Shown here: positions 27,458-64,000 of the stretch, one piece after another
Position numbering within the stretch: position 1 is the first letter of the stretch
Layout of the letters: each line of letters opens with the position of its first letter
Virus record (IMG/VR): IMGVR_UViG_3300042261_002391
Location: 1-64,000 of that record
Source of the DNA: a virus
Strand: one strand, 5' to 3'
DNA length: 64,000 bases
The notes under the pieces: model-generated
Told to the model about the DNA's origin: nothing
Database searches by the model: none
What the model saw: only the letters and a program-made list of their open reading frames with translations
Program-made: the position numbers and the translations under genes

Positions 27458-29120
27458 ATTTCTTATACGTTTGAGCTGGGAAAAGGTTACAAATTTAATG
27501 ACGATTATCAATCAAATATCTACCCGCCTTAATATGACCATCTTCAAACAAGCATTTGAATACATGATGAATGCAATACATTGGGTACTTTCCGGCACGA
27601 ATCTTTTCACATTCGCCAAAGTCCATTGTTATTTTTGCGTCATGTTCACTAATCTCGTATTTGTATAAAGCATTATTAGCTTCTTCAATTGCTTCAAACT
27701 CAAAGCTACCACCATAATGCTTTTCAACCAGACGATTAAATTCATCAGCATCCATTTCAATTAACTCTGGTTTGGCTGGCTCTTCCTCGAATAATACATT
27801 GAAAGGATTTTCTTCTGTACATTCAATAACAACATCAACTGGTCTGGCAATTCTTCTTATATCCAATCCCCAATAAATGCCTTTCCGTATAGCATTAATT
27901 ACTTCATCAGTTTCTTTATGGGTTTGAATTCCAACCTCAACATTAATTTTCACTTCTCTTGTTTCCATAACAGTATTGTTTATTGGTTTGTACTTCTTAT
28001 ACGTTCTTAAATAAAAAAGGTTACCGAAATATATTTTAATAATGTAGGTATTTATATAATATTTAGCTACATTTGTAGCAGTGTTTATTGTGACGCACAT
28101 AGTGATTCTCGAATAGACGAGAAATAATGGAGAATATCTCACTCACTAAGATATGTTATTTATAGCATAATCACACAAAAAAGTTGCCCCTACTAGTAAA
28201 AGCAACATTAAATTTGTAAGTTCAGGTGTACATTACCCATAGACAAGTTCGTCGAACAATGCGTATTGTACAATGCTGTCAGCATCTCCGGCATCGTGAT
28301 TATCAATCAATTCGGCAGGGTCAGTACATCTATCTTCGCAGAACATTTTAATGCCTTTAAGCATAGAATCTCTAGTCAGTTTCCATTTGTCTGACGATTC
28401 AGCATCATGCAATGTCAACGAGCCACCGTAACCAATTACGTCTGATGCATAGTTTACTTTTTCTTGGTCTTCATCGCTTACACCAATGATTTTACCATCC
28501 CTGTCTTTATTGATTACAGCTTTCCCACACCAATAGTTGATACCACCTTCAAGTGCAGTTACAACTAAGTCGTTAATGTCTTGAGTGCTGAACTCATGTG
28601 ATAAGGTAATCTCTACTTTAAACTTGTCCATGATAGTATGTTTTAAATGGTTATACTTCTTATACGTTCTTAATTAAAAAAGGTTACAGCTCAATTACAC
28701 TATTTAGTACATTAACAGCATTCGAAATGCCATCCTTACCTATGAAGAATAGGTAATCGTAAGATGTTGAACCTAATCTCATTCCATCATTATCATACCA
28801 ATAGTTATATCCTTTGTTATATTCCTTTTTATCGCCTTTAGCATCATAATAAAAAGAACTTGAACTTGTTTTGGTCTGGTATTTTCCATCAGTAGTTTGA
28901 TATGACTTACCTACAATCTTAATATCTTCTTTACTGTACATTGCCATATGTGTATTGGTTATACTTCTTATACGTTCTTAATTAAAAAAGGTTACAAACG
29001 TACAATAAAAAAGGCGTACATTGCTGCACGCCTTTTCATTAAACAATGTCACAAATAAAAAGAACAAAACAAAATCGATATCTTATACGTTTAATCTTTA
29101 AAAAGGTTACAATTATTATG

Positions 29121-29195
29121 AGCATGGAGTGGGATTCGAACCCACGACTTTACAGTTTTGCAGACTGTTGCCTTTGACCACTCGACCATCCATGC
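29121..29195 (-). tRNA. tRNA-Cys(GCA), copy 1 with own ECF-type promoter
   Basis: Full cloverleaf; anticodon arm ACAGT-CTGCAAA-ACTGT; U73. Confidence 0.95.
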
Positions 29196-39230: not shown

Positions 39231-39304
39231 TGTGACGTAGCGCAGTTGGTTAGCGTGCCTCCGGGATAGGGAGAAAGTCGTAGGTTCAAGTCCTGCCGTC
39301 ACTA
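39231..39304 (+). ncRNA. tRNA-like RNA, non-canonical anticodon loop GGGATAG
   Basis: Good acceptor, D and T arms; no U33. Confidence 0.7.
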
Positions 39305-39309
39305 CAAAG

Positions 39310-48969: not shown

Positions 48970-49005
48970 TTATGGAGGTCTGTTGATAATCTATGTGTCT
49001 TTCAT
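48970..49005 (-). CDS. Amber-interrupted leader peptide MKDT(TAG)IINRPP
   Basis: ATG AAA GAC ACA TAG ATT ATC AAC AGA CCT CCA TAA, followed by an 11-bp inverted repeat 48956-48966/48876-48886. Confidence 0.65.
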
Positions 49006-49009
49006 ACTT

Positions 49010-49348
49010 TTAATTTTTTAATGCTAAATCTAATGATTGAGTAATTTTACGCATCTCCGGAGTACCGTAGAAGCATACAGAGGTCATTTGGTTGTCGATG
49101 TCAGGTTCGTGGAACGAAATAACATCAGCACCATTAGAAACTAATTTTGAATAAAGTTTTTGGAGTTCATCTTCATTATTAATTTCAAGTACGATAATGT
49201 AATTAGAAGCTTCATACCATCTATTAAACAATTTATTATTTTTTATCGAAAAATCAGCAATGGCATGATTTGATTGTGCAATCATTAATCCATTACTTAA
49301 ATCATTTCTAACAACAATAACTAATTTATCAATCTACTTATCTTTCAT
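49010..49348 (-). CDS. Pth2-type peptidyl-tRNA hydrolase with in-frame TAG at codon 5
   Basis: MKDK(TAG)IDKLVIVVRNDLSNGLMIAQSNHA...FHEPDIDNQMT; the conserved KLVIVVRxDL strand lies upstream of the called ATG at 49285. Confidence 0.85.
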
Positions 49349-50251
49349 AACTAAACAATTTAATTTATTAATAATATTTTCGTTATATTTTATTCTAATC
49401 ATTCTTATTTTATTTTCAAAGCAATAGTTGTTTTTTATTAAGTCCCTTCTTTTAATGTTTAAAAATTCTGACTTCCCGCCAAATGCATCAATTGGCTTAT
49501 AATGTTGAATTCCATCAAATTCAATGACAATATTTAAATCAGGTAAATAAAAATCAAATCTAAGATTACCATTATCGATACAATTATCAAATGATTTTTC
49601 TCTTATATAGAGTATATTTTCATTGTTTAAAAATTCAGCAATAATAGATTCTCCTTTTGATTCATTACATATTGGACATCCAATTCCTCTCATGTGATGT
49701 ACTGGTGCTTGTTGAAACATACCGTGATTAGGACATATTATTGTAACTTTGGTTTTATTGTTAATATAATTAACCAATGAATAGTCATACTTTCTATTAT
49801 GAATATTATTCGATGTTTCAATAAATTCTTCCTGAGATAATTTAAGTTTATTAGCCTTATATTCAATTGCGCATTTAGGACAGCCTGACTTTTTTAAAAT
49901 GTGACTTTTAGGCGTTTGTTGAAATATACCGTGTTTTTTACACTGAATTTTTATTTTGGTATAATAATTTACATAATCAACCAATGTATAATCATACGTA
50001 TCGCCATGTATCTCGACACATTTAGCAATAATATCTAATGTGGTATGCCTATTTTTTTGCAAAATTTTAGTATACCCACATTTTTTACAACCTTGACCAG
50101 CTATATGATTTTTAGGCGTTTGAAAAAAATCGCCATGAATTGGACACGTGATAATTATTTTTGTAGTGTTATTAATATATTCGACTTTATTATAGTCATA
50201 CTTATCACCATGTTTTTTTATTGCATTAAGTATAAATTTACTAGTATTCAT
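49334..50251 (-). CDS. Homing endonuclease with three DUF723-like Cys/His repeats and a C-terminal Vsr/DUF559-like PD-(D/E)xK domain
   Basis: HGDKYDY...ICPxHGxFxQ..H..GxGCxxC x3; RFDFYLPDLNIVIEFDGIQH; GTATTTATA at 50264-50272. Confidence 0.85.
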   Translation of the reverse strand: MNTSKFILNAIKKHGDKYDYNKVEYINNTTKIIITCPIHGDFFQTPKNHIAGQGCKKCGYTKILQKNRHTTLDIIAKCVEIHGDTYDYTLVDYVNYYTKIKIQCKKHGIFQQTPKSHILKKSGCPKCAIEYKANKLKLSQEEFIETSNNIHNRKYDYSLVNYINNKTKVTIICPNHGMFQQAPVHHMRGIGCPICNESKGESIIAEFLNNENILYIREKSFDNCIDNGNLRFDFYLPDLNIVIEFDGIQHYKPIDAFGGKSEFLNIKRRDLIKNNYCFENKIRMIRIKYNENIINKLNCLVMKDK

Positions 50252-50290
50252 AATATCGTTTACTATAAATACTAAGTATTTGTCTAAAAG

Positions 50291-50353
50291 ATAACCAGCT
50301 TTTAAATCCTTTCTGGTAATCGTAACTAATTTAACCTAGTGTGTGTGTCTCAT
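50291..50353 (-). pseudogene. Displaced Pth2 N-terminus MRHTH(TAG)VKLVTITRKDLKAGY
   Basis: Matches the Pth2 N-terminal motif; frame continues without stops into the endonuclease ATG at 50251. Confidence 0.7.
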
Positions 50354-50440
50354 AACTTTTAGAGTTTAATTATAAATACTATTGAATTGCAAATGTAATG
50401 AATAATTTTTAATATACAAGCAATTTCAAATAAATTTTTG

Positions 50441-50514
50441 AGATTCTAGTGGGATTCGAACCCACGATTTTCAAGTTTTAGAGACCTGTGCAATAACCAC
50501 TCTGCCATAGAACC
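50441..50514 (-). tRNA. Amber suppressor tRNA(CTA)
   Basis: GGTTCTA/TAGAATC acceptor, anticodon arm CAGGT-CTCTAAA-ACTTG, T arm GTGGG-TTCGAAT-CCCAC, U73. Confidence 0.9.
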
Positions 50515-51505
50515 ATTTAATTATTAATCAACTACGATTTCAAAATCGACATCTTTTTCACTTGAGCTGCAGTAAAATCTAAAGCTATAACCCTTATCTT
50601 TACAGGCAGCAATTAATCTGTGAGCAAATTCTTCACCACCACCATCATTTTCAGGCATTAATACCTCAATATCGTCAATTATAATCGTCTTGAATGGCGG
50701 TTCTTTAATACTATCATCATATCTTGCAATGACGCATTTTTTAATAACTTCTTCTTTAACTGTAACATCATTAAGAAGATTAAATTTATTTAAAACACTT
50801 CTCACGTTTTTATGAAATGTATTGCCATTACGAAAACTTACTGATGTTTCAGTGGGTAACACACCTAATTTACCTTCTTTATTCAGAATTGAATTTGCAG
50901 TTCCCAATGCTTTCTCTAAACGAACTACATATTCAGCTATATTGTAGATTTTATTATTCCTATTAATCTTCATTGTCTTCAAATTTAAACATTTTTTTTC
51001 GTATTATCTCGTAGTTTTTAAAGCATAAGCACATTGTTTTAAACTCTTTGCCTTCTTTAGCTACTTGATAAATATATTTTTCACCTTCTTTAATTGTTAT
51101 CTGCAAACCATTATCAATTCCCCAATCTTTTCTTTCTTCCGGGGTACTATGACTCATTATATAAACATAGCCATCACATAAACGTTCGAATTTAGATATT
51201 GGATATGTTCGTTTTAATAATTCAAAGTTTTGCATAGAACTACATTTATATACGAAACAGATTGAAAAAGGTTACAAAATATCTTTAATAATTTCATCAA
51301 ACTCTTCTGCGGTCATACTTACTTCCATTCTAAGCTCAGAAATCTTTCTTATAGCAAACACTGCTTCGCCATAAGCATCTTCATAAATAACAAATAATTG
51401 ATTGTCGTATTCGCCGGAAAATGGCTTCAACAAAGTCATTGCTGAATCTTCGTCGTAAATTGTAATTGCTTTTCTTTTATTTGACATGTTGAGTAAATTT
51501 TTTTG

Positions 51506-51591
51506 TAGCGGATACAGGATTCGAACCTGTGACTCCTTTTGGGAGTTCTGGCTTATGAGACCAGCGAGATAGTCCACTTCTCTAATCCACA
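51506..51591 (-). tRNA. tRNA(CAT), initiator-like Met, with long variable arm
   Basis: Loop CTCATAA; 1:72 mismatch; extra hairpin ACTCC-CAAAA-GGAGT. Confidence 0.85.
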
Positions 51592-51596
51592 ATGTG

Positions 51597-51688
51597 CGGA
51601 AGGTGAGGGATTCGAACCCTCGGTGCGGAGGTTCTCTCCGCACGGTAGTTTAGCAAACTACTGATTTAAGCCACTCATCCAACCTTCC
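51597..51688 (-). tRNA. tRNA-Ser(GCT)
   Basis: Loop TTGCTAA, long variable arm, G73. Confidence 0.95.
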
Positions 51689-52303
51689 TTAATTAATAAC
51701 AATATCCTTATCTGAAAAAGCTTCGCATATTTCAGTATTTGGTTTAATCCATGCTTCACCACATTCAAGCAAATATCTTGGATATAAATGCTCTTTAGCA
51801 AATTTCCTAATATGCTCACAATCTTGAAGCGATAATAACAATACCTTTTCAAGCCGTTCTGCATTATTTGCAGCCAATGCTTCGCTAACTATACTCATAC
51901 TTACTGAACATTAAAGTTTTTCAATATAAATGGATTTGGTTTACCTTTACATTCCGATAAATACCAAGGCAACAACTTTCTTCTCGCAAATGCACTAACA
52001 GCACTTCTAATATCACTCCAATCTGAACCGTTCATTGCATCAAGAATAAGCCTTTCCAAGATTTGAGATGTTTCATATTGTACTTCAGATTTGCTTGCTT
52101 TAATTGTATTTTCAACTAATGTCTGTTCATAGGCTTCTTCAAGAGTATCGCCCGGATAATACCAATGTGGACATAAATGAGCTTCAATACCAAGTGTTTC
52201 GGCTTCATGCTCCCATTCAGGTTTTTCCCACCTATTTGTACGTTTATTTAAACACCAACCATTTTCGATTAGATATTGTTCTCTTTCAAGATTTGTTTTC
52301 ATA

Positions 52304-52528
52304 TTATTCAACTTTTACGTGTTTCAATGAATCACATGGAACACAAGTTATCGATGAATATGAACCGCCTTGTGTGCTAACGCTATTAACAACAGCATAG
52401 CATAAGCCAGTCCGTTCATCTTTAAAATATGTCAAATTTTTCTTAACCTGTTTAATATCTGTTTCTTCACTCATTTGACATGAGGCAACAAAAAATACCA
52501 ATAATAACAATGCAATCTTTTTCATACC
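52304..52528 (-). CDS. Small lipoprotein
   Basis: MKKIALLLLVFFVASC lipobox. Confidence 0.65.
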   Translation of the reverse strand, partial: GMKKIALLLLVFFVASCQMSEETDIKQVKKNLTYFKDERTGLCYAVVNSVSTQGGSYSSITCVPCDSLKHVKVE

Positions 52529-52565
52529 ATTCTTTTTGCAATTATACGAAAACAATTTGAAATTG

Positions 52566-53261
52566 TTACAACTTTTTCAATAAATTTTTATTTTCATTTC
52601 TTTTTTCTCTTCTTTTAGTTCTCCCGTTACCCTTATTTAATGCACCATATGTCGGTGTTAATGAATGGCAATTAGGACATAATAATTCTAAATTATTCAA
52701 GCTATTATTGTCAGAATTTCCATCTTTATGTTCTAATTGTATTGGTACTAATCCAGTAGTTTGATTAATTTCATGCCATCCACACTTCATACATTTATCA
52801 CCACATTTAAATATTAAATATTTTTTATATGTATCTGAGCTATATGTTGTGTTACCCGATTCGATATTATTGAAAATTAAATTTTGTTTATATGTATTAC
52901 TACATTCAACAGAACAAAATTTATTTTGATTACTGTTTAAATCATTTCCACAATTTAAACATTTTTTTAGCTTTACAAAATTGCTCACTCTTTTAGGATA
53001 TTTTCTATTATTATATTTAGCACTACACGACCTACAACAAAATTTTCTACTATCATTAATCATTCCGATAAATTCGCCACCACAATTTAAGCAAACAATC
53101 TTTTCACGTATATTAGATGTATTTTGTTTATATCCTAATTTATTTAATTTAACTTGAACGCTCCTAAAACTACGATTTAATTCTTTAGCGATTCCTTCAA
53201 GTCTCATACCTGATTTATTCAAAAAAACAGCTTTTTCAATATCTTCTTTCGACCATTTCAT
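52566..53261 (-). CDS. HNH homing endonuclease with HTH and zinc-finger N-terminus
   Basis: CMKCG...LEHKDGNSDNNSLNNLELLCPNCH. Confidence 0.9.
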   Translation of the reverse strand: MKWSKEDIEKAVFLNKSGMRLEGIAKELNRSFRSVQVKLNKLGYKQNTSNIREKIVCLNCGGEFIGMINDSRKFCCRSCSAKYNNRKYPKRVSNFVKLKKCLNCGNDLNSNQNKFCSVECSNTYKQNLIFNNIESGNTTYSSDTYKKYLIFKCGDKCMKCGWHEINQTTGLVPIQLEHKDGNSDNNSLNNLELLCPNCHSLTPTYGALNKGNGRTKRREKRNENKNLLKKL

Positions 53262-53319
53262 AATATATAATTTATTATAAATACTATAAAATGCGAAAAA
53301 AGATTTTCGAAACTAATTG

Positions 53320-53393
53320 TGCGGGTAAAGGGAGTCGAACCCTCTCTATTTCTGCTTGGCAAGCAGATGCACCACCAACTATGCGTCACCCGC
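53320..53393 (-). tRNA. tRNA-Gly(GCC)
   Basis: TCTGC-TTGCCAA-GCAGA. Confidence 0.92.
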
Positions 53394-53695
53394 AAATTAG
53401 CAGGAATTACTTCCTGCAATTTTTTTTAAGGCATGAGCCTAAATGTTAGCTTATTTCTAAGTTTTGGATTGCCAACCCAATACACATATTCTTCAGCTTT
53501 TTCATAAGCATAGAATTGGGAAATAGCTTTAACATAGAACGTTAGAACTTCACCACTCGTAAGCGTGAATTCTACCAACCAATATTTCATTGGTTGTTTT
53601 TCGATAACCTTTTTTGAATTCTTCATTCTTGCAATTTATCAGATAATCTGATAAACTACGAACTGTTAACTTTTCTCATACTCATTATTACATTG

Positions 53696-53771
53696 AACGT
53701 CTGGAGGGATTCGAACCCTCATGTATCCAATTACACTTCTCTACGTTCGTAGCGTAGCGTGATACAGACGC
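53696..53771 (-). tRNA. Atypical tRNA-Arg(ACG) lacking a D arm, with a D-loop-like hairpin in the variable position
   Basis: GCGTCTG-TATCACG-CTACG CTACGAA CGTAG-AGAA-GTGTA ATTGGA TACAT-GAGGG TTCGAAT CCCTC-CAGACGT. Confidence 0.75.
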
Positions 53772-53775
53772 ATGT

Positions 53776-54366
53776 TTATTTTTTTCTGTTTTCGTATTTT
53801 AAGTATCTTTCTTTTCTTGCAGAATTTTTATTTTTAGATGTAAATGTATCCAATTGACTATTACAATTAGAACAAACTAATCGTAAATTTTCTCGTTTAT
53901 TATTTGAAGCATCACCGTTAATATGGTCTAGCACAAATACTAAAGGTTTCCCATTCCAAAAATTTTCAATACCACAAATCGCACATTTATTATCTTGTTC
54001 TTTTAATACGTGTTTTTTTACAAACACAGGCATATAATCGGCTCTACAATATTTTTCGTTATTTTTTAAAAAATCTTCGTATTTTATTTTTGCCTTATAT
54101 TCAAACTCACATGTTTTATTACAATATTTCCCACAATAATAATCACATTCTTTACCACAATTAAGACAATAAACAATCTTTTTTTTACCCTTATTTGCTG
54201 GAACAAAATTAATTGGGAATTTAGCTCTCCTTGGTAATGAAATTCCTAAACTATTACATATTTTTTTTATATATGTATCGGAAACATTATACATTTTACC
54301 GATTTCACGATATGTTTTTTTTTCAACAAAAATTAAATTTTCTAATTCTTCTTTAATGTATTTCAT
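53776..54366 (-). CDS. HNH homing endonuclease
   Basis: CAICG...LDHINGDASNNKRENLRLVCSNCN. Confidence 0.9.
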   Translation of the reverse strand: MKYIKEELENLIFVEKKTYREIGKMYNVSDTYIKKICNSLGISLPRRAKFPINFVPANKGKKKIVYCLNCGKECDYYCGKYCNKTCEFEYKAKIKYEDFLKNNEKYCRADYMPVFVKKHVLKEQDNKCAICGIENFWNGKPLVFVLDHINGDASNNKRENLRLVCSNCNSQLDTFTSKNKNSARKERYLKYENRKK

Positions 54367-54449
54367 AATATTTTTTTATATAAATACTATGAATATTAAA
54401 ATCGAACTAAAAAATCAAAAATAAATTTTATTGTTATTGGTTCGATTAG

Positions 54450-54521
54450 TAGGGATTAGAGGATTCGAACCTTTACAATTTTGTTAGGAACAAAATATGC
54501 TATCCATTACATCAAACCCCC
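54450..54521 (-). tRNA. tRNA-Arg(CCT)
   Basis: TTTTG-TTCCTAA-CAAAA. Confidence 0.9.
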
Positions 54522-54649
54522 ATTTAATTTTCATCTGTTTTAATTGGTATATAAATAACCTCACCGCAACATAAACCATAGTCACTTCCATTAATTGGAG
54601 CTACTGGTTGATTACATTTAGGACAATATGCCATATGTTTTAAATTTAG

Positions 54650-54721
54650 TAGGAATTAGAGGATTCGAACCTCTACGATTTCGTTAGAAGCGAAATATGC
54701 TATCCATTACATCAAATCCCC
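54650..54721 (-). tRNA. tRNA-Arg(TCT)
   Basis: TTTCG-CTTCTAA-CGAAA; close paralogue of the Arg(CCT) gene. Confidence 0.92.
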
Positions 54722-55027
54722 GTTAGTGAACATTACCCTATTACCTATAGAGGCAAATATTATTTCTTTCTAAAGAAAACTTTTAATGGGTTTAATTTAG
54801 CAAAGATAAAGTAGAGTATAAAGAAAAATAGAGACAATAGGTAGAAAATAGAAATTGAAAACCAATAACTTCCCGTTGTGTCTATTAACCACTTCAGAAT
54901 AGCGTCGTAACCCATAGGATTGAAAAATGTTCCTAAAAAGAGGAACAGAGTCGCTAGTTTCTCCCTGTTTATTACCTTCATCACTTTCCATATTTTTCGA
55001 ATTAATAAATGTAATTTTTTTCATATG

Positions 55028-55101
55028 AGCCGAGGACAGGACTCGAACCTGCAACTTCCTGATTACAAGTCAGGCACTCTACCAATTAAAGTTACCTCGG
55101 C
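55028..55101 (-). tRNA. tRNA-Thr(TGT)
   Basis: CCTGA-CTTGTAA-TCAGG. Confidence 0.95.
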
Positions 55102-55550
55102 ATTGTTCTTTCTTTTCGACCATTTCCACGATTAGCACCTTTATATGTTGGTGTTAAACTATGACAATTAGGACATAAAAGTTTTAAATTTTCTTCTTTA
55201 TTATTCAAATAATTACCATCAATATGTTCGATTTCCAACGGTATTTTACCAGTGTATTGATTAACTTCAGACCATCCGCATTCAGAGCATTTGTTGGAGA
55301 ATTTTTCAAATATATATCTTTTAATGTGACATGATAATTGATATTCACCTCTCATTCCATCAACTAATCCAGCTTTCCATTTATCGATATACTCCAGATA
55401 TTTAATATCTGCGCCAATTTTTGCTTTTTCAGATGAATGTAATTTTGAGCAATCTTTGCAATATACCACCTTCCATTTTTTTATTTCGGAAGGTCTTCGA
55501 TAGATTGGTTTATTACAATCACTACAATTACAATTTGGTTTTCTCACCAT
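55092..55550 (-). CDS. HNH homing endonuclease; stop codon lies inside the tRNA-Thr 5' end
   Basis: CSECG...IEHIDGNYLNNKEENLKLLCPNCH. Confidence 0.9.
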   Translation of the reverse strand: MVRKPNCNCSDCNKPIYRRPSEIKKWKVVYCKDCSKLHSSEKAKIGADIKYLEYIDKWKAGLVDGMRGEYQLSCHIKRYIFEKFSNKCSECGWSEVNQYTGKIPLEIEHIDGNYLNNKEENLKLLCPNCHSLTPTYKGANRGNGRKERTMPR

Positions 55551-55567
55551 ATTTATTTTCTATTTTG

Positions 55568-55639
55568 AGCCGACTATTGGAATCGAACCAATATTTACGG
55601 GTTACAAAGCCGTAGTAATAACCGTTATACGAAGTCGGC
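55568..55639 (-). tRNA. tRNA-Thr(TGT), divergent second copy
   Basis: ACGGC-TTTGTAA-CCCGT (one mismatch); GCCGACT/AGTCGGC acceptor. Confidence 0.8.
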
Positions 55640-56377
55640 ATTTGTTATATTATATGACCAATTCTCTCTTTCACATGTGCTTTATATCTTTCGATATTTC
55701 TAACACTACCACGTGTTGCCGGGTGATAAATGAATTCATGCGATATTTGGTGCTTTTTAAGCTCTTTTTCGACCTTTCTGCCCATTGCTATTACAACACC
55801 ATTAAATGATTGAATATCGTTTATATCATCTTCAAATACGTTTTTAAACTCACATTCATTCCAATCAATTCCAATGTTTTCAACTGCTTTTGATAAATGT
55901 GCTGCAGCTAATCGCTTATCAACCCAAGTAACATTCATTCTAATTGCAGTATTACTTCTTCTTTCTCCGACAAATAAAAATCGTTTCATATTATTAATTG
56001 TTAATCATTTCGTTTTTAGATTCCAAAAATTTTTCTAAAATCAATTCCTTCCTGAATGTTGTTGTTACATATTCATCAATTTTATTCAAAGTTAGGTTTT
56101 TAATTAGTTCTTCAACAGTAATGTATTTACCTTCAGAATAAACCATTGGTGGATATGAAACACCTTTCCAAATACGTGGAGTAAAATATTTTACTCCCAG
56201 CCTTGCCCAACCATAGATTGCAATTTCTTTTGGTCTAATATTGGTGATTTTTTGGCATTCACTACAATAGCATAAAGAAACCGGAGCATAATCAGTAGAA
56301 TAAACACCTTCACTTTCCCGTTCTTCACAAAAATCACAAATTGTTGCGTTATTCATTCTTTTTATTTAAAAAGTTTG

Positions 56378-56449
56378 CGCTCCGAGGGAATTACGATATC
56401 CCAACCCTCACTTTAACAGAGTGACGCTCTACCTTTGAGCTACCGAAGC
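56378..56449 (-). tRNA. tRNA-Asn(GTT) with atypical T loop ATCGTAA
   Basis: TCACT-CTGTTAA-AGTGA; G73. Confidence 0.85.
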
Positions 56450-56631
56450 ATTTGTTTTAAACATCATCGATGTCTTTTTGTTTTTTCCTATCATACTTCT
56501 TTTTTGATGTATGAATTTTGTTTACTGTCACCCAACCAGTGGAATTTTCTAGTTCGGCTTCTCTCGACCCTTTTCTCGATGCGAGAACATAGTCCGATAG
56601 TTTCTTCTTTTTCATTTCACTAGTTTTTTTG

Positions 56632-56703
56632 CGCCCCGAATAGGACTCGAACCTATAATCTATTGGTTAACAGCCAATTGCTTCACCATTAAGCTATCGG
56701 AGC
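56632..56703 (-). tRNA. tRNA-Asn(GTT)
   Basis: ATTGG-CTGTTAA-CCAAT. Confidence 0.95.
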
Positions 56704-57396
56704 ATTGTTTATTTTTTCATGTAATTCAATATGACAATTAGCACATAGTAATATACATTTATCCACTTCTTTTTTTAAACGTTCGATTGAATAACTTTTA
56801 CCACTAACCGTAAAATCTTTCATATTTGGATTGGTGTGATGAAATTGTAACACACTTATTGACTTATCATATCCACAAATTTCACACTTACCTCCCTTAT
56901 ATTGAATTAACTCAATTTTTTTTCGCTTTCTCCATTCAATAACTGATTGAGATTTTGTTTTTGTCTTTTCCCTCTTAAATATTTTCAAATCGGGTATTAA
57001 TTTTCTCAAAGTATCTCTACTGGTATTAAAATGCTTTGCAGTTAATCTTAGTGATTTTACGGTATTATAGTATGTAATAATCTCATCAACATCAAATCTT
57101 TTTTTTACAGTATTAATTGGTTTATTTAACTTATATTTTCTACATATTTTAATTAACTTATCTTCACTAATGTCAACTATTTTAAGTATTTCATCATATG
57201 TTTTTTCTTCAATCCTTAATTTTTTTATTAATTCGATTGTCCTTTCATCAACGCCAAATAAAAAACTGTTAATATTACCACCAAGACCAGCATTATTTAA
57301 ATGATATGATACCGTACTTTTACTACAATTTAAGTTTTTGGCGATTTCATTAATACTTTTACCCCTTTTCCTTAATTCTAAAATTTTTTCTTTCAT
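56689..57396 (-). CDS. HNH homing endonuclease with HTH repeats; 3' end overlaps tRNA-Asn
   Basis: GGKCEICGY...LQFHH...KCILLCANCH..LH. Confidence 0.9.
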   Translation of the reverse strand: MKEKILELRKRGKSINEIAKNLNCSKSTVSYHLNNAGLGGNINSFLFGVDERTIELIKKLRIEEKTYDEILKIVDISEDKLIKICRKYKLNKPINTVKKRFDVDEIITYYNTVKSLRLTAKHFNTSRDTLRKLIPDLKIFKREKTKTKSQSVIEWRKRKKIELIQYKGGKCEICGYDKSISVLQFHHTNPNMKDFTVSGKSYSIERLKKEVDKCILLCANCHIELHEKINNAPIA

Positions 57397-57485
57397 ATTA
57401 TTAATACCGATGATTAACATCTTTTGTTAATAAATACGTATAACTGCAAAAAAGTTCGATTCTTTATCACAAAATTAATATTTTA

Positions 57486-57557
57486 GCTCTCGTATTGGAC
57501 TCGAACCAATCCCGCCCTGCTTCACGCAGAGTGTACCTTCCACTATACGAACGAAAT
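57486..57557 (-). pseudogene. Degenerate tRNA, possibly His(GTG)-derived
   Basis: D and T arms intact; anticodon arm CTCTG-CGTGAAG-CAGGG lacks U33; C73. Confidence 0.55.
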
Positions 57558-57656
57558 AACTACTACTCAACTTCACCGCTAAATTCCATTTTTTGTAGAG
57601 AACATAAATCTAATCAATGATGTTAGCGCATCATGTTTCAACTTCCAATTCTTTTG

Positions 57657-57730
57657 TAGTGAGGGTGAGGGTCGAACTCACACATCTTTTGCTTATAAGA
57701 CAAATGCCGTCACCATTTAGCTACCTCACC
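57657..57730 (-). tRNA. tRNA-Ile(TAT)
   Basis: TTTGT-CTTATAA-GCAAA; A73. Confidence 0.88.
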
Positions 57731-57951
57731 ATTTATTAACTACCATTCAATAGTAACATCTTTTACTGATTCAACATCAATTTCATGATAATATTTCCTA
57801 TGTTTTTTATTGAAAAGAGTGCTTCTAATATTATTAAAACTACAATCACTTGGGCAATGAATTAGTGCAGTTCCATTTCCTTTTTCTTCCGTGCCTTGAC
57901 AATAATATGTATAGGTATATTCAAGTAAAACATATTTCCATTCCATAACAA

Positions 57952-58353
57952 CTAACTTAAAATTTGTTTTACAATATTACTTACAATAATGTTATCAGCT
58001 TTTCCTTTGTACAGTGCATTAAATTTGCCCATTATCATTCCGAATGATTTCATGTCCAATGCGATTGCATAATCAGCAATAATTGAATCAACTGCTATCT
58101 TAATTTCATCATCAGACATTAATTCTGGTAAATATGCAGCATAGAAATTAGCTTCCTCGATATTTGAACATTCAATCGCCGAATTTTTCATTTGTTTCAA
58201 TACTTCAAACGCAACTGAATCGGGAAGATTTGTAGTCCCTTTACGCTGTAATTCACTTTTAATCATTTTCAAACGATTGATTAGCACGTTGTCACGATTT
58301 TTTTCTGCAAGTGCTTGTTTCAATTCTTCATTTACTTTTTCCTGCAATAGCAT
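57952..58353 (-). CDS. GatB/YqeY domain protein
   Basis: LKMIKSELQ...YLPELMSDDEI...GMIMG...GKAD. Confidence 0.8.
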   Translation of the reverse strand: MLLQEKVNEELKQALAEKNRDNVLINRLKMIKSELQRKGTTNLPDSVAFEVLKQMKNSAIECSNIEEANFYAAYLPELMSDDEIKIAVDSIIADYAIALDMKSFGMIMGKFNALYKGKADNIIVSNIVKQILS

Positions 58354-58427
58354 AGTTTCAATTTTTAAATTAACACACAAAATTAACTAAATAATTCAAT
58401 CTACCAAAATATTTGATAAATTTTTTG

Positions 58428-58501
58428 AGCAGCATCCCGGATTTGAACCGAGACCTCAACCTTGGAAGGGTCATATGCTAACCGTTAAACACCAATGCTG
58501 C
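58428..58501 (-). tRNA. tRNA-Gly(TCC)
   Basis: TGACC-CTTCCAA-GGTTG; U73. Confidence 0.93.
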
Positions 58502-58572
58502 TTATGTGATAAAGAGATAATCAATATGAAGCAATTAAATCGACATACCTCGAACTTTCCGTCATTACCTCG

Positions 58573-59634
58573 CTATAATGTCCGGGAGTTTATCTCTTCA
58601 CATTTTAAGTTAATTAAATCATCATAACTATATTCTTTATTTTCAAGTATTAATAATACAGAAAACCCCAACTTAATATATTCATTAAACTTATCAATAA
58701 TATTATTTTTATTTAATGTAAATTTTGATTTAATTTCAATTATTTTATTTTCATGAGGAATATAAAAATCTGGGATTGCTACTCTATATTTTTTATTAGA
58801 TGAATCCCAATATTTAATTCTAAAATACTCTACTTCATAATCAATTTTATTATTATCTAAATTAATTGCAAAATTTAATTCATATGAACTTCTATAGTAT
58901 ATTTTTTTTCCGTTCCATGTTTCATGCCAGCCATGTTTATATTGGTATTTAGTCTCTGAACTTAAAACATTATTGTTTAACTTACCTATCAAACATGCGT
59001 TAATTTCACTCTCGGATAGATTTCTAGTTTTAATACCAAATGATTTTAATATATGCAATATATTTTCAGAATTTTTATTATAATTATATTTAATTGCAAT
59101 ATCTTTAGGTGATAAATTATTGTCAAAATATTCCTTTAACAATAACTCCCTTATCCTATAATACTCTTCAAATATTTTCAATGTTCCAACAGAATCCAAA
59201 TCAAACCCAAATTCAATTAAATTATTAAACCATTTTTTTGAGTGTTTACATATTTCAATATTTACACATTTTTCCTGTCCACAAATTTTACATAATTTAG
59301 GTTTGTTATTTTTTTGTGACTTTATCGATAAAGTATTTTTTATTTTGTTCTTAGTTGCTTCACTCACTATTCTAATTTGATTATTGAATTTAGCTGAACA
59401 TGAATGTGAACAAAAATTAAGTTGTCTTTTATTCAATGAAGTATTACAAAATTTACATTTATTAGTACATTCAACTCTTCGTCGATTATATGTATTTAAG
59501 TCAAAACCAACAGATTTTGCAATATTTTTCAACTTTAAAATACCTGCAGAATTATCTGAAAATCCAAAATAAACATACGCTTCTGTTCTACTATTAAAAC
59601 TATTTAAAATATCAAACATTTTGCTATTTTCCAT
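58573..59634 (-). CDS. Putative homing endonuclease with TnsA-N-like PD-(D/E)xK domain
   Basis: YRSSYE...IPDFY...IIEIKS; N-terminal CxxC...FCSxSC; GTATTTAT upstream. Confidence 0.75.
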   Translation of the reverse strand: MENSKMFDILNSFNSRTEAYVYFGFSDNSAGILKLKNIAKSVGFDLNTYNRRRVECTNKCKFCNTSLNKRQLNFCSHSCSAKFNNQIRIVSEATKNKIKNTLSIKSQKNNKPKLCKICGQEKCVNIEICKHSKKWFNNLIEFGFDLDSVGTLKIFEEYYRIRELLLKEYFDNNLSPKDIAIKYNYNKNSENILHILKSFGIKTRNLSESEINACLIGKLNNNVLSSETKYQYKHGWHETWNGKKIYYRSSYELNFAINLDNNKIDYEVEYFRIKYWDSSNKKYRVAIPDFYIPHENKIIEIKSKFTLNKNNIIDKFNEYIKLGFSVLLILENKEYSYDDLINLKCEEINSRTL

Positions 59635-59731
59635 ACTAAAGTTTATAATAAATACTTACTTTAGCGGAAAAAACACGTTATGAGCCAAATATAATAAACA
59701 TATTTCCAAGGTTCATAATAATCATATTTCG

Positions 59732-59804
59732 TTGGAAAGGTGGAAATCGAATCCACTTAAACGGTTTTTCAAACCGTCAGATACACCACGTCTCTCACTT
59801 TCCA
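59732..59804 (-). tRNA. tRNA-Phe(GAA), atypical D arm
   Basis: ACGGT-TTGAAAA-ACCGT. Confidence 0.8.
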
Positions 59805-59841
59805 ATATTAAATTTCACATATAAAGAAATTCATATAAAAA

Positions 59842-59996
59842 TGGTTCTGGTGTGAGCCTCCTACTCACGTCTCCCGATGATATTTCGACCATCATAAATG
59901 TCTCGGAGATTATTGATGTATCAAACCGTATTGCCAAGTACGTTTACATTAACTTTCTACTGAACATTAGGTCAGCCTCTTATGCAATCCAGAACC
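59842..59996 (-). ncRNA. Candidate structured RNA of about 155 nt within the tRNA array
   Basis: Terminal stem GGTTCTGG/CCAGAACC; T-arm-like GTGAG-TAGGAGG-CTCAC; internal TCTCCG/CGGGAGA stem. Confidence 0.55.
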
Positions 59997-60070
59997 TTCA
60001 CATCTAAAGATTCATGACTTCTTTTCGATGCACAAACCAAAACGATGGTGTCCTATCCATTTTGGTTTTG

Positions 60071-60165
60071 AGGAAGAAGTCGGACTCGAACCGACACACC
60101 ACGTTCTTCACATGATTACTCGTAGTTTTCAAGACTACTCCCTTACCAATTAGGGTTATTCTTCC
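60071..60165 (-). tRNA. tRNA-Ser(TGA)
   Basis: GTAGT-CTTGAAA-ACTAC; long variable region. Confidence 0.9.
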
Positions 60166-60175
60166 ATTATTATCG

Positions 60176-60256
60176 TAGTGATGGTGGGATTCGAACCCAC
60201 ATTACCTTACGGTACACCTTATCAGGGTGCTGCCTTAACCAATCGACCACATCACT
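60176..60256 (-). tRNA. tRNA-Ile(GAT) with extra variable hairpin
   Basis: GCACC-CTGATAA-GGTGT followed by ACC-GTAA-GGT. Confidence 0.88.
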
Positions 60257-60319
60257 ATATTTTAGTAATACTATGCATTAATTATTGAAAAGCGATAATT
60301 TTCGCATAATATTACTATG

Positions 60320-60394
60320 AGCACGGAGTGGGATTTGAACCCACGACTTTACAGTTTTGCAGACTGTTGCCTTTGACCACTCGACCATCCGTGC
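60320..60394 (-). tRNA. tRNA-Cys(GCA), copy 2, first gene of the array
   Basis: Near-identical to 29121..29195. Confidence 0.95.
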
Positions 60395-60423
60395 ATTATT
60401 TTTACCCAACATGTCAATGAACT

Positions 60424-60459
60424 AAAACAAAAAACCCGAAACTTTTGATTTCGGGTTTT
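60424..60459 (-). terminator. Intrinsic terminator (attenuator) ahead of the tRNA array
   Basis: AAAACCCGAAA-TCAAAAG-TTTCGGGTTTT-TTGTTTT; alternative pairing partner TTGATTCGGGT at 60503-60513. Confidence 0.85.
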
Positions 60460-60478
60460 ACTTTATGCTTAATATTCT

Positions 60479-60613
60479 TTACGAACCTATCGCATCCTCT
60501 ACACCCGAATCAATTACAATATTTCTGCCTGTAATGTTAGAACAGAATATACCATTTCCATTGCGACTTGATGTCCCAAAATTTGAACTTGATATGGTTG
60601 TAAAAGTATTCAT
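60479..60613 (-). CDS. 44-aa leader peptide MNTFTTISSSNFGTSSRNGNGIFCSNITGRNIVIDSGVEDAIGS
   Basis: A-rich initiation region; lies between promoter and terminator; composition mirrors the downstream tRNAs. Confidence 0.8.
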   Translation of the reverse strand: MNTFTTISSSNFGTSSRNGNGIFCSNITGRNIVIDSGVEDAIGS

Positions 60614-60656
60614 CGTTTTTATTTTTAATTGTTAATATTAATTCGTTTTCATCTAA

Positions 60657-60695
60657 ATACGTTGCAAAGGTAAAAAAGGTTACACAATTTGCAAA
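60657..60695 (-). promoter_or_regulatory. Overlapping ECF-type and host-type promoters for the leader/tRNA array
   Basis: TGTAAC-N17-CGTAT overlapping TTTG-N19-TACCTTTG. Confidence 0.7.
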
Positions 60696-60763
60696 CATTT
60701 TTCAGGAAAAAATGAAAAAAAAATCATTAATTTTTATAAGTATTTAATTTTCAAACATATCCA

Positions 60764-63520
60764 TTATGTGGTTACATCAACAATTTTTATTGTATTATCA
60801 CTACCATCAATATATTTTAGCTTAATTGTACCTGTAGATGTTTTAATAATTTCCTTAGAATAGTCGGCAAAGATATGTGTTGCACTTGAAAAATCAATTC
60901 CGACAAAATTAATATTACCAAATATCATATTTTGTTGAAATGTCACTCCCGATATTGGTATATTAAAATATGAAACCAAATGACCGAAAGTATTTAAATT
61001 ACTACCACTTGATAATGTGATATCTATACAACTATCTCCAAATATATTATTAAAACAATTATCATTCAAATGGATGCTATTGCAAGCAACTCCAAATATG
61101 TTTGAATCACACGTAATGCTCAAAAAATTACCATTACAATGATTGCCAAATACATTATTAGTGCAATTCTCACCAATATTGTTATACATACATTTATTAC
61201 CTAAAATAATTGAGTTACAATGACTGCCAAAATTGTTTTCCACACAATTAAAACCTAAAACTGTTGAGGTAACTCCTGATGAAAATACATTTGATATATT
61301 AGCAGCACCTAAAGTACAATTATTTAACCCAAATCCCGATGTATTTATTTGACAATCATCGCCAAAAGTGTTTGAGGTACACTCATCGCCAAAAGTGTTT
61401 GTGGAATTATTTGAATCAAAACGATTAAAGCCACAAGTATTGCCAAAAGTGTTCGCATAACAGTTATAGCCAAAAATGTTCCCATAACAAGTATTGCCAA
61501 AAATATTTTCATTACAACCATCACCAAAAATATTTGAATGACAACTATTACCAAAAGTATTTGAACCACAATTATCACTAAAAATATTTGAATAACAACT
61601 ATTGCCAAAAAAATTCACTGAGCAACTATTGTTAAAAGTATTTGAATAACAGCTATCGCCAAAAGTGTTTCCATAACAAGTATTGCCAAAAATATTTAAA
61701 TAACAACCTACGCCAAAAGTGTTTCCATAACAAGTATTGCCAAAAATATTTAAATAACAACCTACGCCTAAAGTGTTTGAGCTACAATTATTGCCAAAAA
61801 TATTTTCACTACAACCATCAGCTAAAATATTTCCACTACAGTTAATGCCAAATCTGTTATTATAAGAGCCACCGCTTAAAGTGTTTAACCTACAAATATC
61901 ACTAAAAATGTTTTCATTACAACCATTAGCTAAATTATTGGTATTACAGTTATCACCCAAAATATTTGAATAAGAACCACTAAATACATTATCATAACAA
62001 CCATAACCCAAAGTATTGTTATAACATATATTATTAAAAATATTATTATAAGAATAACTTCCAAATTTATTGTAATAACAATTATATGTTAAAGTATTAT
62101 TATTACAATTATCAGCAAAAGTATTGTTAGCACACACACTATATAACGTGTTTGAATAACATCCATCACCAAAAGTATTATTTACAGAATTATTACCTAA
62201 AAAATTTGACTGGCAACCACCATTAAAAATATTTGAAGAGCAATTATTTCCAAACGTGCATAAACTAAAATTTTTTCCTAAAATATTAAAATTACATGAC
62301 TTACCAAAAACATTTGACTGACAATAATCACCAAAAACATTCGAGGCAAATTCCCTTCCAATAATATTATTATCACACCCATTACCAAAAGTATTTGAGT
62401 CACAGTTTATACCAAATATATTACGAGTACAATTATTACCAAAAGTGTTTGATGTAAATAAATCGGAAATAGTATTTAGCTGAAAATCAGCCCCATATTT
62501 ATTATTAGTAATTGAAGAGAATTGGCTATCAATATTACTATTAGATAAATAAAATACGTTATTTTGTAATATCGATGGGATGTACCCTGTTTGGCTATTT
62601 ACGCCATTAATTATTGAATCGAAAATATTATTCTTAACTAATAATTCATATGTATTATACTCATCAAAACCTTGAAACGTTAAACAGTCAATATAGTTCG
62701 AATAACCATCAGAATAAGACATATAGCTCCAATATTGTGTTATATTGTAGTCAACAATTTTTGCCCAAGATGTATCATCTGTGACATCATTTAAATTATC
62801 ATCAATTACACTAAGATAAACACCACCTGTAGAACCTGTTACTTGTACATAAGTATTTACGCTGTATGCAGTCCCACCACTCCACTGAGGATATCCATTA
62901 GTATCTTCAGTAAACAAATATCTTCTGAATTTAACATTTCTAAAGTCATACCCTAAGCTATTATTGTTTTTTACGTCATGTCTTTTATATATAACACCCT
63001 TAAAATCAGGTATTAATGTAACATTAGTTAAATCAGGATTTAAAGCTGTGCCACCAGCATTTTCAGCAGTCGCAAAACCATAATCTAGCATCCAATTGTT
63101 TGGATTCCAGTCGTAATAAATTATATCTTGTGGATATTGTTGTGAATATGCTTGTGGATAGAATTCGCTAATTGTACTTGCTTTAATAATTAGCGGTTCT
63201 AAGTTCCCAACATTAATATCATCAAGTCTATCGTAACCATCAAACATATAATGAACAGTTCTATAATCATTTATTCTATAGAAAGTATTGGGTGTTAATC
63301 CGGAGGTAGTTGTTAAACCAGTTAATTGATTATAAGTTAAATTAATCACACCTGCAGTATTACCACTGATTTCAACAAAATATCCTTCACCATTGAGATA
63401 GGTGTCTGGGTCTTGTGATAGTGTAGTATTTATTGGTGATGATGATACATAAACATCGCCAGTTCTAAGATAATTTCTATAATCGGAAACTGAAAGTTTA
63501 TCTAGTTCTTGTGTTGCCAT
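60764..63520 (-). CDS. Large virion/fibre-like protein with 9-aa NxFGxxCxx beta-solenoid repeats
   Basis: Dozens of N(T/I)FGxxCxx units; QWSGGTAYSVNTYV CBM5/12-like motif; GTATTTAT upstream. Confidence 0.75.
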   Translation of the reverse strand: MATQELDKLSVSDYRNYLRTGDVYVSSSPINTTLSQDPDTYLNGEGYFVEISGNTAGVINLTYNQLTGLTTTSGLTPNTFYRINDYRTVHYMFDGYDRLDDINVGNLEPLIIKASTISEFYPQAYSQQYPQDIIYYDWNPNNWMLDYGFATAENAGGTALNPDLTNVTLIPDFKGVIYKRHDVKNNNSLGYDFRNVKFRRYLFTEDTNGYPQWSGGTAYSVNTYVQVTGSTGGVYLSVIDDNLNDVTDDTSWAKIVDYNITQYWSYMSYSDGYSNYIDCLTFQGFDEYNTYELLVKNNIFDSIINGVNSQTGYIPSILQNNVFYLSNSNIDSQFSSITNNKYGADFQLNTISDLFTSNTFGNNCTRNIFGINCDSNTFGNGCDNNIIGREFASNVFGDYCQSNVFGKSCNFNILGKNFSLCTFGNNCSSNIFNGGCQSNFLGNNSVNNTFGDGCYSNTLYSVCANNTFADNCNNNTLTYNCYYNKFGSYSYNNIFNNICYNNTLGYGCYDNVFSGSYSNILGDNCNTNNLANGCNENIFSDICRLNTLSGGSYNNRFGINCSGNILADGCSENIFGNNCSSNTLGVGCYLNIFGNTCYGNTFGVGCYLNIFGNTCYGNTFGDSCYSNTFNNSCSVNFFGNSCYSNIFSDNCGSNTFGNSCHSNIFGDGCNENIFGNTCYGNIFGYNCYANTFGNTCGFNRFDSNNSTNTFGDECTSNTFGDDCQINTSGFGLNNCTLGAANISNVFSSGVTSTVLGFNCVENNFGSHCNSIILGNKCMYNNIGENCTNNVFGNHCNGNFLSITCDSNIFGVACNSIHLNDNCFNNIFGDSCIDITLSSGSNLNTFGHLVSYFNIPISGVTFQQNMIFGNINFVGIDFSSATHIFADYSKEIIKTSTGTIKLKYIDGSDNTIKIVDVTT

Positions 63521-63643
63521 ATTAATTTCTAGTTTAATATAAATACAAAATATTAACTAAATAACTATAATATTATATACAAATCAAGAACATAAAAAAA
63601 AGGCTGTCCATTTGGACAGCCTTTAATATTATAGAATTATGAA

Positions 63644-64000
63644 TTAAATCTTTTCTTCTTTTTCGCACATGTCGAAAGTGAAATCAACAGATTGTCCGTC
63701 AAGAGTGAGTGTTAATTTATTTTCGTCAAAACTCTTGAACTCGGTGAACCATTTTTTCGATAAGATAAGAGCAAATTTAATTTCAGCAATTTCTTGCATA
63801 ATTTTTCTCTTTTGCTTATTCAAAATGTTCGATTTTGTTTCGAGATATGTTTTTAACACACCCTTTTGCTGTTCTTCAGATAATGTTTTGTAAATATCAG
63901 ATTCGGTCTGTGCAACGTATTTATTAATCGCATCAGCCATAACCAATTCATTAATCTTCAAAGGAGCACCGGATTTAATTTTAGCTACAACATCTTCGAC
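63644..64000 (-). CDS. C-terminal part of a protein starting beyond the window
   Basis: Frame is open from the window edge to the stop at 63644; terminator at about 63595-63624. Confidence 0.7.
   Translation of the reverse strand, partial: VEDVVAKIKSGAPLKINELVMADAINKYVAQTESDIYKTLSEEQQKGVLKTYLETKSNILNKQKRKIMQEIAEIKFALILSKKWFTEFKSFDENKLTLTLDGQSVDFTFDMCEKEEKI

Follow-up and report, generated by a model that had tools for sequence, protein, structure and literature searches.

How does a phage control a large set of tRNA genes of its own? The question is raised by a locus on the minus strand of viral DNA from the IMG/VR record IMGVR_UViG_3300042261_002391, in which a short open reading frame (ORF) and an intrinsic terminator stand directly ahead of an array of tRNA genes (positions 60,320 to 60,695). 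The stretch analyzed, called the window below, comprises bases 1-64000 of a record of 88,468 bp that has a G+C content of 32% and 39 tRNA genes in all. The completeness of this record is 27% (CheckV), and it is therefore a fragment of a jumbo phage. The DNA sequencing runs in which more than half of the stretch is present come from freshwater and lake metagenomes. To our knowledge, the way in which phages control their tRNA sets, which are often large, is essentially unknown, and tRNA genes are generally thought to be controlled by their promoters and not by attenuation. An initial annotation of the locus, made from the letters alone, had proposed an attenuator sensing many tRNAs at once. Our analysis of the sequence indicates that the locus, which we call unit A, is very probably a ribosome-mediated (leader-peptide) transcription attenuator of phage tRNA genes, and one of four paralogs in a phage family.

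The comparisons below cover 21 leader units drawn from seven related phage records, the relatives having been reached via a neighboring peptidase gene and through alignments of leader peptides, and five further contigs with an A-type leader. One relative, found via the peptidase gene, is a complete phage of 364,702 bp with terminal repeats and a G+C content of 26%. The same architecture is present in at least 12 related viral contigs. An exact 28-nt promoter pattern scanned over viral contigs gave zero matches, and blastn against GenBank phages matched the tRNA-Cys and short AT-rich or terminator stretches, and nothing more.

Results

A leader ORF and a terminator precede the tRNA array

Unit A lies downstream of the gene for a 918-aa repeat protein and runs along the minus strand in the order promoter, ORF, hairpin, tRNA-Cys (Table 1). 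The promoter, 44-codon leader, terminator and following tRNAs listed by the initial annotation were all recovered on this strand at the positions it had given. An A-rich untranslated region separates the promoter from the leader ORF, 19 nt lie between the ORF and the terminator, and another 30 nt between the terminator and tRNA-Cys. The promoter elements (TTTG-N19-TACCTTTG) fit the Bacteroidota sigma-A consensus, and the TAnnTTTG promoters of the units presumably point to the host polymerase and to a Bacteroidota host. A phage-type TGTAACC motif (60684-60678) overlaps the promoter of unit A, whose region was found by DNA search of the record to be 83% identical over 124 nt to the promoter of a second unit, unit B (record positions 85372-85493).

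The terminator is the only strong terminator-like site on the minus strand between 50 and 60.5 kb. Hairpins of the form ACCCG..CGGGTTTT occur three times on the minus strand of the 88 kb, each time directly ahead of a tRNA block. Behind the terminator comes a spacer motif with the consensus GTTCTTTGACATGYTGG, which follows 11 of the 21 unit terminators, chiefly those of A and B type, and could be a signal for processing or for modulating termination. The motif (GTTCTTTGACAT) was also considered as a second promoter and rejected, since its -10 box would land in the tRNA and a TAnnTTTG box is absent.

The leader itself belongs to no family in Pfam or PHROGs, and its homologues in metagenomes are 35 small proteins (40-80 aa), none of which carries a functional name. 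That it could be a fragment of the neighboring 918-aa repeat protein, which is rich in N, F, G, C and S, was ruled out (BLASTP, E = 5.5).

Table 1. Features of unit A and of the three other units, with window coordinates unless another record is named.
Feature	Position	Strand	Description
Promoter, unit A	60665..60695	-	TTTG at -33 (60695-60692), N19 spacer, -7 box TACCTTTG (60672-60665); read from the sequence
Leader ORF, unit A	60479..60613	-	44 codons and TAA
Sensor codons 2-32	60518..60610	-	only N, T, F, I, S, G, R, C
Antiterminator strand (strand 2), unit A	60502..60514	-	ATTGATTCGGGTG, codons 34-38
Intrinsic terminator, unit A	60425..60459	-	12-pair stem and 5-nt loop (60459..60431), then T-run TTTTTTGTTTT; -13.5 kcal/mol
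Conserved post-terminator spacer motif	60401..60422	-	GTTCATTGACATGTTGGG; consensus GTTCTTTGACATGYTGG
tRNA-Cys(GCA), first gene of array A	60319..60394	-	ARAGORN; Rfam 61.9 bits
Rest of array A, 16 tRNAs after Cys	51505..60256	-	ARAGORN and Rfam
Unit B	ATG at record 85393 (beyond window)		motif LLWA.AEDML; leader rich in L, A, V, D, E, M, W
Unit C	ATG at record 73850 (beyond window)		KKYYGYKSYKK; leader rich in K, Y
Unit D	364,702-bp relative		24-codon ORF, core HIHPQPQQHPQ, then terminator, then Pro x3/His/Gln x2

The leader codons match the tRNAs encoded downstream

Codons 1-32 of the leader use M, N, T, F, I, S, G, R and C exclusively, while K, L, E, D and Y are absent. The initial annotation had remarked that these nine residues are the isotypes of the array, and our codon count agrees with it on this limitation and on the matched codons that the leader holds (ATA, ATT, TCA, AGT, GGA, GGC, CGC and AGA). 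Altogether, the leader has codons for 12 of the 14 distinct anticodons found in array A. The part that is most conserved in A-type leaders reads AGT CGY AAT GGA AAT GGT ATA TTC TGT TCA .. ACA GGC AGA AAT ATT, that is, one or two codons per isoacceptor.

The match is stronger than chance would give, as had been claimed. The nine-residue set accounts for 46% of the protein residues of the record, and 37 of 43 leader residues fall within it against 19.8 expected (binomial p = 6e-8, with ORFs of at least 150 aa in the record as background). For this set, the leader ranks first among the 493 ATG-initiated ORFs of 20-60 aa, and its in-set run of 32-33 residues exceeds every other in the record (88 kb, six frames), the runner-up having 21.

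Three other leader classes match arrays of their own

A search of the record with the DNA of the leader region returned the 83%-identical promoter copy at 85.4 kb and a similar terminator at 73.7 kb. Units B and C were thus located by DNA similarity of promoter and terminator, blind to the peptide, and because peptide composition played no part in finding them they are a fair test of the idea that leaders are matched to arrays. The array of unit B encodes, in order, Asp x2, Glu x2, Val x2, Leu x4, Ala, a tRNA with anticodon CAT, Ala and Trp; in its leader, 22 of 34 residues belong to its own set (p = 3e-4) and all ten anticodons are sampled (10/10). In unit C, ahead of Lys(CTT), Tyr and Lys(TTT), K or Y occupies 12 of 30 leader residues (p = 6e-4), with the codons AAA, AAG, TAT and TAC and three anticodons out of three. 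The record ends within a gene just upstream of His and Gln tRNAs, and the fourth unit was therefore sought in a relative. The 364,702-bp phage has the same four tRNA blocks, and in the leader of its unit D, 10 of 23 residues are H, P or Q against an expectation of 1.7 (p = 2.5e-6); in this genome, whose G+C content is 26%, they are encoded by a C-rich tract.

When every leader was compared with every array (a 3x4 matrix for the record and a 4x4 matrix for the complete relative), the array of the same unit gave the top enrichment for all seven leaders, and the A, B and C leaders of the record each rank first among its 493 small ORFs for their own set. The check that the initial annotation had proposed, that leader codon sets should track tRNA content across related arrays, has thus been run, and they do so in four classes.

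The layout of promoter, short ORF on the same strand and regulated tRNAs holds in 21/21 units. In 20 of them, the ATG is preceded at a distance of 33-94 nt by a TAnnTTTG box, a sequence with a background frequency of 0.9 per kb per strand, and most of these promoters have TTTG at the -33 spacing. An A-type leader followed by a terminator and an array that begins with Cys (or Thr, Cys), Ile and Ser was found in all 11 distinct viral contigs (11/11). The first tRNA usually begins 8-40 nt after the terminator, and at least 140 nt after it where extra DNA, for instance an HNH gene, intervenes.

A strand within the ORF can pair with the terminator

The initial annotation had also predicted that a leader strand pairs with the 5' arm of the terminator to form an antiterminator, and the folding results agree. 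In unit A, TTGATTCGGGT (ORF nt 100-112, codons 34-38; strand 2) pairs with the 5' arm at -13.5 kcal/mol, is about as strong a partner for it as the terminator's own 3' arm, and occupies the 5' arm in the minimum free energy fold of a transcript cut before the 3' arm (shuffle p = 0.013-0.034). A strand complementary to the terminator 5' arm is present within the distal third of the ORF in 21/21 units of the seven records, with p between 0.003 and 0.14 in shuffles of the individual units, and in several units this strand is a better partner than the 3' arm, for example at -20.3 versus -15.4 kcal/mol. Strand 2 moreover covaries with the terminator arm: the pair is GAATGGGG/CCCCATTC in the D class versus GAATCGGG/CCCGATTC elsewhere (xTCGGGx/CCCGAx).

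In four of the five B-type units analyzed, strand 2 overlaps the stop codon (GTC GGG TAA), so that a terminating ribosome would mask the strand as in trp. In the B unit of the record studied here, the stop is changed and the ORF is five codons longer. A pairing that would act as anti-antiterminator (1:2) is significant in three of the five B-type units (ACTCGAC/GTCGGGT, p 0.01-0.04) and in one A-type unit.

Leaders evolve within their amino-acid sets

The four leader families have the cores SRNGNGIFCS..GRN, L.IL....LLWA..ED.L..VG, YYYGKKSYKK and PQPQQHPQ. Where B-class leaders differ from one another, the alternative residue stays within the set in 18 of 23 cases (p = 1e-5), and the columns exchange A, V, L, M, E and D, which is not conservative in chemical terms. 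In the A class, the same holds for 33 of 51 alternative residues (p = 0.008). In these alignments, substitutions in the leaders follow set membership and not chemistry. Insertions and deletions comprise whole codons and retain the frame, and the distance from the end of the ORF to the terminator is always 19-37 nt.

Synonymous changes in the A core remain within the decoding range of one tRNA (CGC/CGT, TTC/TTT, TCT/TCA). About 50 nt of the core (60517-60567, minus strand) hardly vary in DNA sequence among six phages, even at synonymous sites; the flanks of these phages differ by about 50%. The list of one codon per isoacceptor could by itself explain this near-invariance; alternatively, a pause or a structural hairpin could be the cause. 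The same 50 nt can fold as a hairpin (TATATTCTG../..CAGAAATAT).

Array A and its surroundings

Behind tRNA-Cys, the array continues with Ile(GAT), Ser(TGA), Phe, Gly(TCC), Ile(TAT), Ser(TGA), two Asn and two Thr, and then with Arg(TCT), Arg(CCT), an atypical Arg(ACG), Gly(GCC), Ser(GCT) and a tRNA with anticodon CAT. The initial annotation had the isotypes right. Its count of two Ser tRNAs was too low, for ARAGORN calls three, one of which (57486-57557) has no Rfam match, and the third of its Arg tRNAs is atypical and called by Rfam only. This tRNA-Arg(ACG) (53696-53771, minus strand; 35 bits) was missed by ARAGORN; only 4 nt stand in the place of its D arm, and an insert of 17 nt with a D-loop-like AATTGGATA follows the anticodon arm.

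The array is not compact. Its tRNAs are spread over about 9 kb, with HNH endonuclease, YqeY-like and other ORFs between them. The HNH or TnsA-like endonuclease ORFs lie at 53776-54366, 55092-55550, 56689-57420 and 58573-59634, all on the minus strand, and in relatives an endonuclease gene of this kind is inserted between the attenuator terminator and the first tRNA (G001 103466-104102). A protein with a YqeY/GatB domain (PHROG 'tRNA amidotransferase') is encoded within the array at 57952-58380 (minus strand).

On the minus strand, the next phage-type promoter motif downstream of unit A is at 51276. This TGTAACC motif belongs to an amber-suppressor tRNA (anticodon CTA; 50440-50514, minus strand) at the far end of the tRNA region, and this tRNA, also found in the 365-kb relatives, suggests read-through or recoding of TAG in some genes. 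Second copies of two tRNAs stand alone behind a TGTAACC motif, with neither leader nor terminator: tRNA-Cys(GCA) at 29120-29195 (minus strand) and tRNA-Ile(GAT) at 39231-39305 (plus strand). A phage-specific promoter-like motif, TGTAACCTTTT..AACGTATAAGAAGTA (TGTAACCTTTTTTAATTAAAAACGTATAAGAAGTA), is found at about 35 other genes of the window and is unlike the TAnnTTTG of the tRNA units. Its copies lie 50-60 nt upstream of start codons in window positions 7600-30000 of the minus strand (for example 19801-19755, 20576-20530 and 25842-25796); the motif could belong to genes of a separate temporal class or be read by a specificity factor that the phage encodes.

The 918-aa protein immediately upstream of unit A (60764-63520, minus strand) consists of degenerate N-x-F-G-x-x-C-x-x-N repeats with 16.6% N and 5% C, and has no match in Pfam or PHROG. 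Residues of set A make up 66% of it, and it may be a major consumer of the tRNAs of array A.

Beyond the window, an Rnl1-like RNA ligase (record G000 74853-75983, minus strand; L005:1583-2713) with 33% identity to annotated phage RNA ligases is encoded two genes upstream of the Lys/Tyr unit, and a papain-like peptidase also lies just upstream of that unit. In the cultured Caulobacter phage phiCbK (JX100813, 47000-53000), annotated rho-independent terminators stand directly ahead of three tRNA blocks, with a small ORF before each. The ORF that ends ahead of the third block (Phe/Val/Ile/Ile/Val/Gln/Gln tRNAs) contains QFVRQIQVV, while gp083, ahead of Pro/Lys/Leu/Ser tRNAs, is rich in S, L, P and K but also in A and T, and only about half of its residues are in the set.

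Discussion

The anatomy of the units suggests how they could work. Host RNA polymerase would start at the Bacteroidota-type promoter and transcribe the short ORF, the proximal two thirds of which would present the ribosome with codons read by the tRNAs encoded downstream. As long as decoding is prompt, the ribosome would reach the distal part of the ORF and cover or melt the xTCGGGx strand that is complementary to the 5' arm of the terminator; with this arm left free, the terminator hairpin would form and transcription would halt before the first tRNA gene. If a sensed aminoacyl-tRNA became scarce, the ribosome would stall upstream, the free strand would pair with the 5' arm, and the polymerase would enter the tRNA genes. 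We infer this direction of control, in which a stall opens the array, because the sensor codons lie upstream of strand 2 in all units. Since read-through would restore the supply of tRNA, the circuit would amount to negative feedback, and since it would sense the arrival of aminoacyl-tRNA at the A site, it would respond to any shortage. Decay of host tRNAs in infection, the codon demand of late genes and anticodon nucleases are all plausible triggers. Counter-defense against anticodon nucleases as the purpose of the circuit is speculative. The Rnl1-like RNA ligase near the Lys/Tyr unit is the only hint of such a link, and no more than a hint; RNA ligase 1 of phage T4 is known to repair nuclease-cut tRNA-Lys.

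Taken together, the four units probably form a four-channel gauge of the tRNA pool, with the regulons C/I/S/F/G/N/T/R, D/E/V/L/A/M/W, K/Y and H/P/Q, so that a shortage of a single species would switch on only the matching regulon. It also seems likely that in such a gauge each leader presents roughly one codon per isoacceptor.

Several observations weigh against leader-peptide attenuation. First, in classes A, C and D, strand 2 ends 8-27 nt before the stop, so that a terminating ribosome would cover it only in part and control would have to be kinetic. This had been raised as a caveat for unit A; it stands for these three classes and is partly eased by the four B-type units in which the strand overlaps the stop. 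The 1:2 pairing is not significant in the remaining units of the 21, and an equilibrium model of the terminator with a masked ribosome footprint gave mixed predictions that depended on the unit, which we do not use as support. Second, a weak terminator-like site within array A (54947-54928) could split the unit; with this site, the inserted genes and a length of 9 kb, one leader may not govern all 17 tRNAs. Third, some tRNA genes have no leader and lie directly behind promoters (the single Cys and Ile genes of the window, and a Leu/Leu/Met block of a relative), and the stand-alone Cys(GCA) and Ile(GAT) copies would give these two isotypes a source independent of the attenuator. Fourth, enrichment is only weak for the K/Y leader that the 365-kb relative carries (p = 0.04, rank 71 of 1687), and K and Y codons are favored by AT-rich DNA. 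Finally, the A core peptide, SRNGNGIFCS..GRN, is more conserved than the sensing of composition alone would require, which would allow for a separate function of the peptide or of the RNA.

This last point leads to the possibility that the small ORFs encode functional micropeptides, such as a membrane peptide in B and a basic peptide in C, with terminators that end them, tRNAs transcribed by leaky read-through or from other promoters, and a match that is incidental. The near-invariance of the A core in the 35 metagenomic homologues would agree with this, and so would the resemblance of the B leader to a hydrophobic helix or a signal peptide and the low rank of the K/Y leader just mentioned, K-rich peptides being common in AT-rich DNA. 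However, we consider this explanation improbable. Four independent classes match their own tRNA block and not the others. A copy of the terminator 3' arm lies within every ORF and covaries with the 5' arm, which micropeptides leave unexplained. The columns of the B leader swap D, E, A, V, L and M, which would be odd for a membrane helix and is expected for set membership, whereas the invariance of the A core reaches synonymous sites, so that selection is not purely at the level of the peptide. The gap of 8-40 nt between terminator and tRNA is also too small for a separate promoter of the Bacteroidota type.

If the ORFs are read by ribosomes as sensors, they might still report general translation capacity (ribosome availability, a global slowdown or host shut-off), any delay then opening all arrays. 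The antiterminator strand inside the ORF would indeed react to any stall upstream of it, and a tRNA operon that general translational stress induces is known from Anabaena (PMC8421152). Yet a general gauge needs no special codons, and what the leaders contain is four sets matched to their arrays, with about one codon per isoacceptor, that have been kept in evolution. We therefore regard such a gauge as quite improbable.

It is very improbable, in turn, that the leader acts as RNA only, with uncharged or intact tRNAs or a protein binding the transcript (as in a T-box or in protein-mediated antitermination) and the open frame as a by-product. T-boxes do show that RNA can sense tRNA directly, and a core of about 50 nt that is invariant in DNA suggests a constraint on the RNA. 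But cmscan of positions 49000-64000 at E < 0.1 matched neither the T-box (RF00230) nor any other cis-regulatory family of Rfam; the hits were tRNA and two plastid models, both of which lie over tRNA genes, and nothing else. The frame is open in 21/21 units at 26-32% G+C, where stops are frequent, indels keep it, and the match is one of amino-acid sets and codons in a single frame. As for an AT-rich intergenic ORF that resembles the tRNA list by accident, the nine-residue set was chosen after seeing the tRNAs and makes up nearly half of the record's proteins, but the first rank among 493 ORFs and the longest in-set run of 88 kb, repeated in three further classes over seven fully analyzed records and five A-class contigs, reduce its chances to next to nothing.

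Leader-peptide attenuation therefore remains the reading that we favor. If it is correct, these would be the first tRNA genes under ribosome-mediated attenuation, and this would be the first virus to gauge decoding directly. With a codon-matched leader, a virus would follow how the host ribosome decodes each single isoacceptor and would adjust tRNA supply by feedback. It would also give a reason for the sorting of phage tRNA genes into amino-acid blocks. The sequence signature could be used to predict which tRNAs a phage expects to lack, including possible targets of anticodon nucleases, and synthetic biology could gain compact orthogonal sensors of single tRNA pools. In the full-text literature, we found no published description of attenuation or leader-peptide control of tRNA genes or of phage tRNAs.

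Comparison with known systems

By their structure, the phage units appear to be members of the leader-peptide attenuator family, except that the regulated genes are tRNAs. All described leader-peptide attenuators that we know of control genes for amino-acid biosynthesis or for aminoacyl-tRNA synthetases. Enterobacteria have multivalent leaders (ilvGMEDA, with Ile, Val and Leu codons, and thr, with Thr and Ile codons), as well as trpL, hisL, leuL and pheL. The pheST attenuator of E. coli, with its pheM leader, is chromosomal, controls an aminoacyl-tRNA synthetase and senses one amino acid. It is like the phage units in that leader-peptide attenuation acts on a component of the translation apparatus, and unlike them in that their targets are tRNAs and the amino acids sensed are many. 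The T-box binds tRNA directly via a specifier codon and the T-box sequence, without translation; it shares with the phage units a transcription antitermination that reports the state of specific tRNAs and acts on genes for tRNA charging or supply, whereas the phage element is an ORF of many codons.

A long tRNA array that is induced by stress is known from the trn operon of Anabaena sp. PCC 7120 (PMC8421152; PMC10272220). Its control is by promoter repeats and a repressor (PMC8421152), and neither a leader nor an attenuator or terminator is mentioned for it (PMC8421152; PMC10272220). The likeness lies in an accessory tRNA array that stays silent until impaired translation induces it, which for the phage is what we propose, and in the association with an RNA ligase gene (rtcB in Anabaena, Rnl1-like in the phage). 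Unlike the phage units, the Anabaena trn operon is not isotype-matched and not viral.

The amino-acid operon leaders, of which hisL and trpL are referred to in PMC9291695, offer the closest set of correspondences and of differences. The phage units share with them a promoter, a short ORF rich in regulatory codons and an intrinsic terminator before the regulated genes, a 2:3 pairing that excludes the terminator, several amino acids per leader and, in four of the five B-type units analyzed, a stop codon within strand 2 as in trp. They differ in that they are phage-encoded, have promoters of the Bacteroidota type and would control tRNA genes in place of biosynthetic enzymes, so that the variable restored is tRNA. 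Strand 2 usually lies well inside the phage ORF, and the 1:2 pairing is not generally supported. A single phage leader covers up to nine amino acids and 12 isoacceptors, with about one codon each and no runs, and the four leaders partition 19 amino acids among four arrays. The novelty would thus reside in the target, tRNA genes, and in the multiplexed sensor, and not in the principle of the switch.

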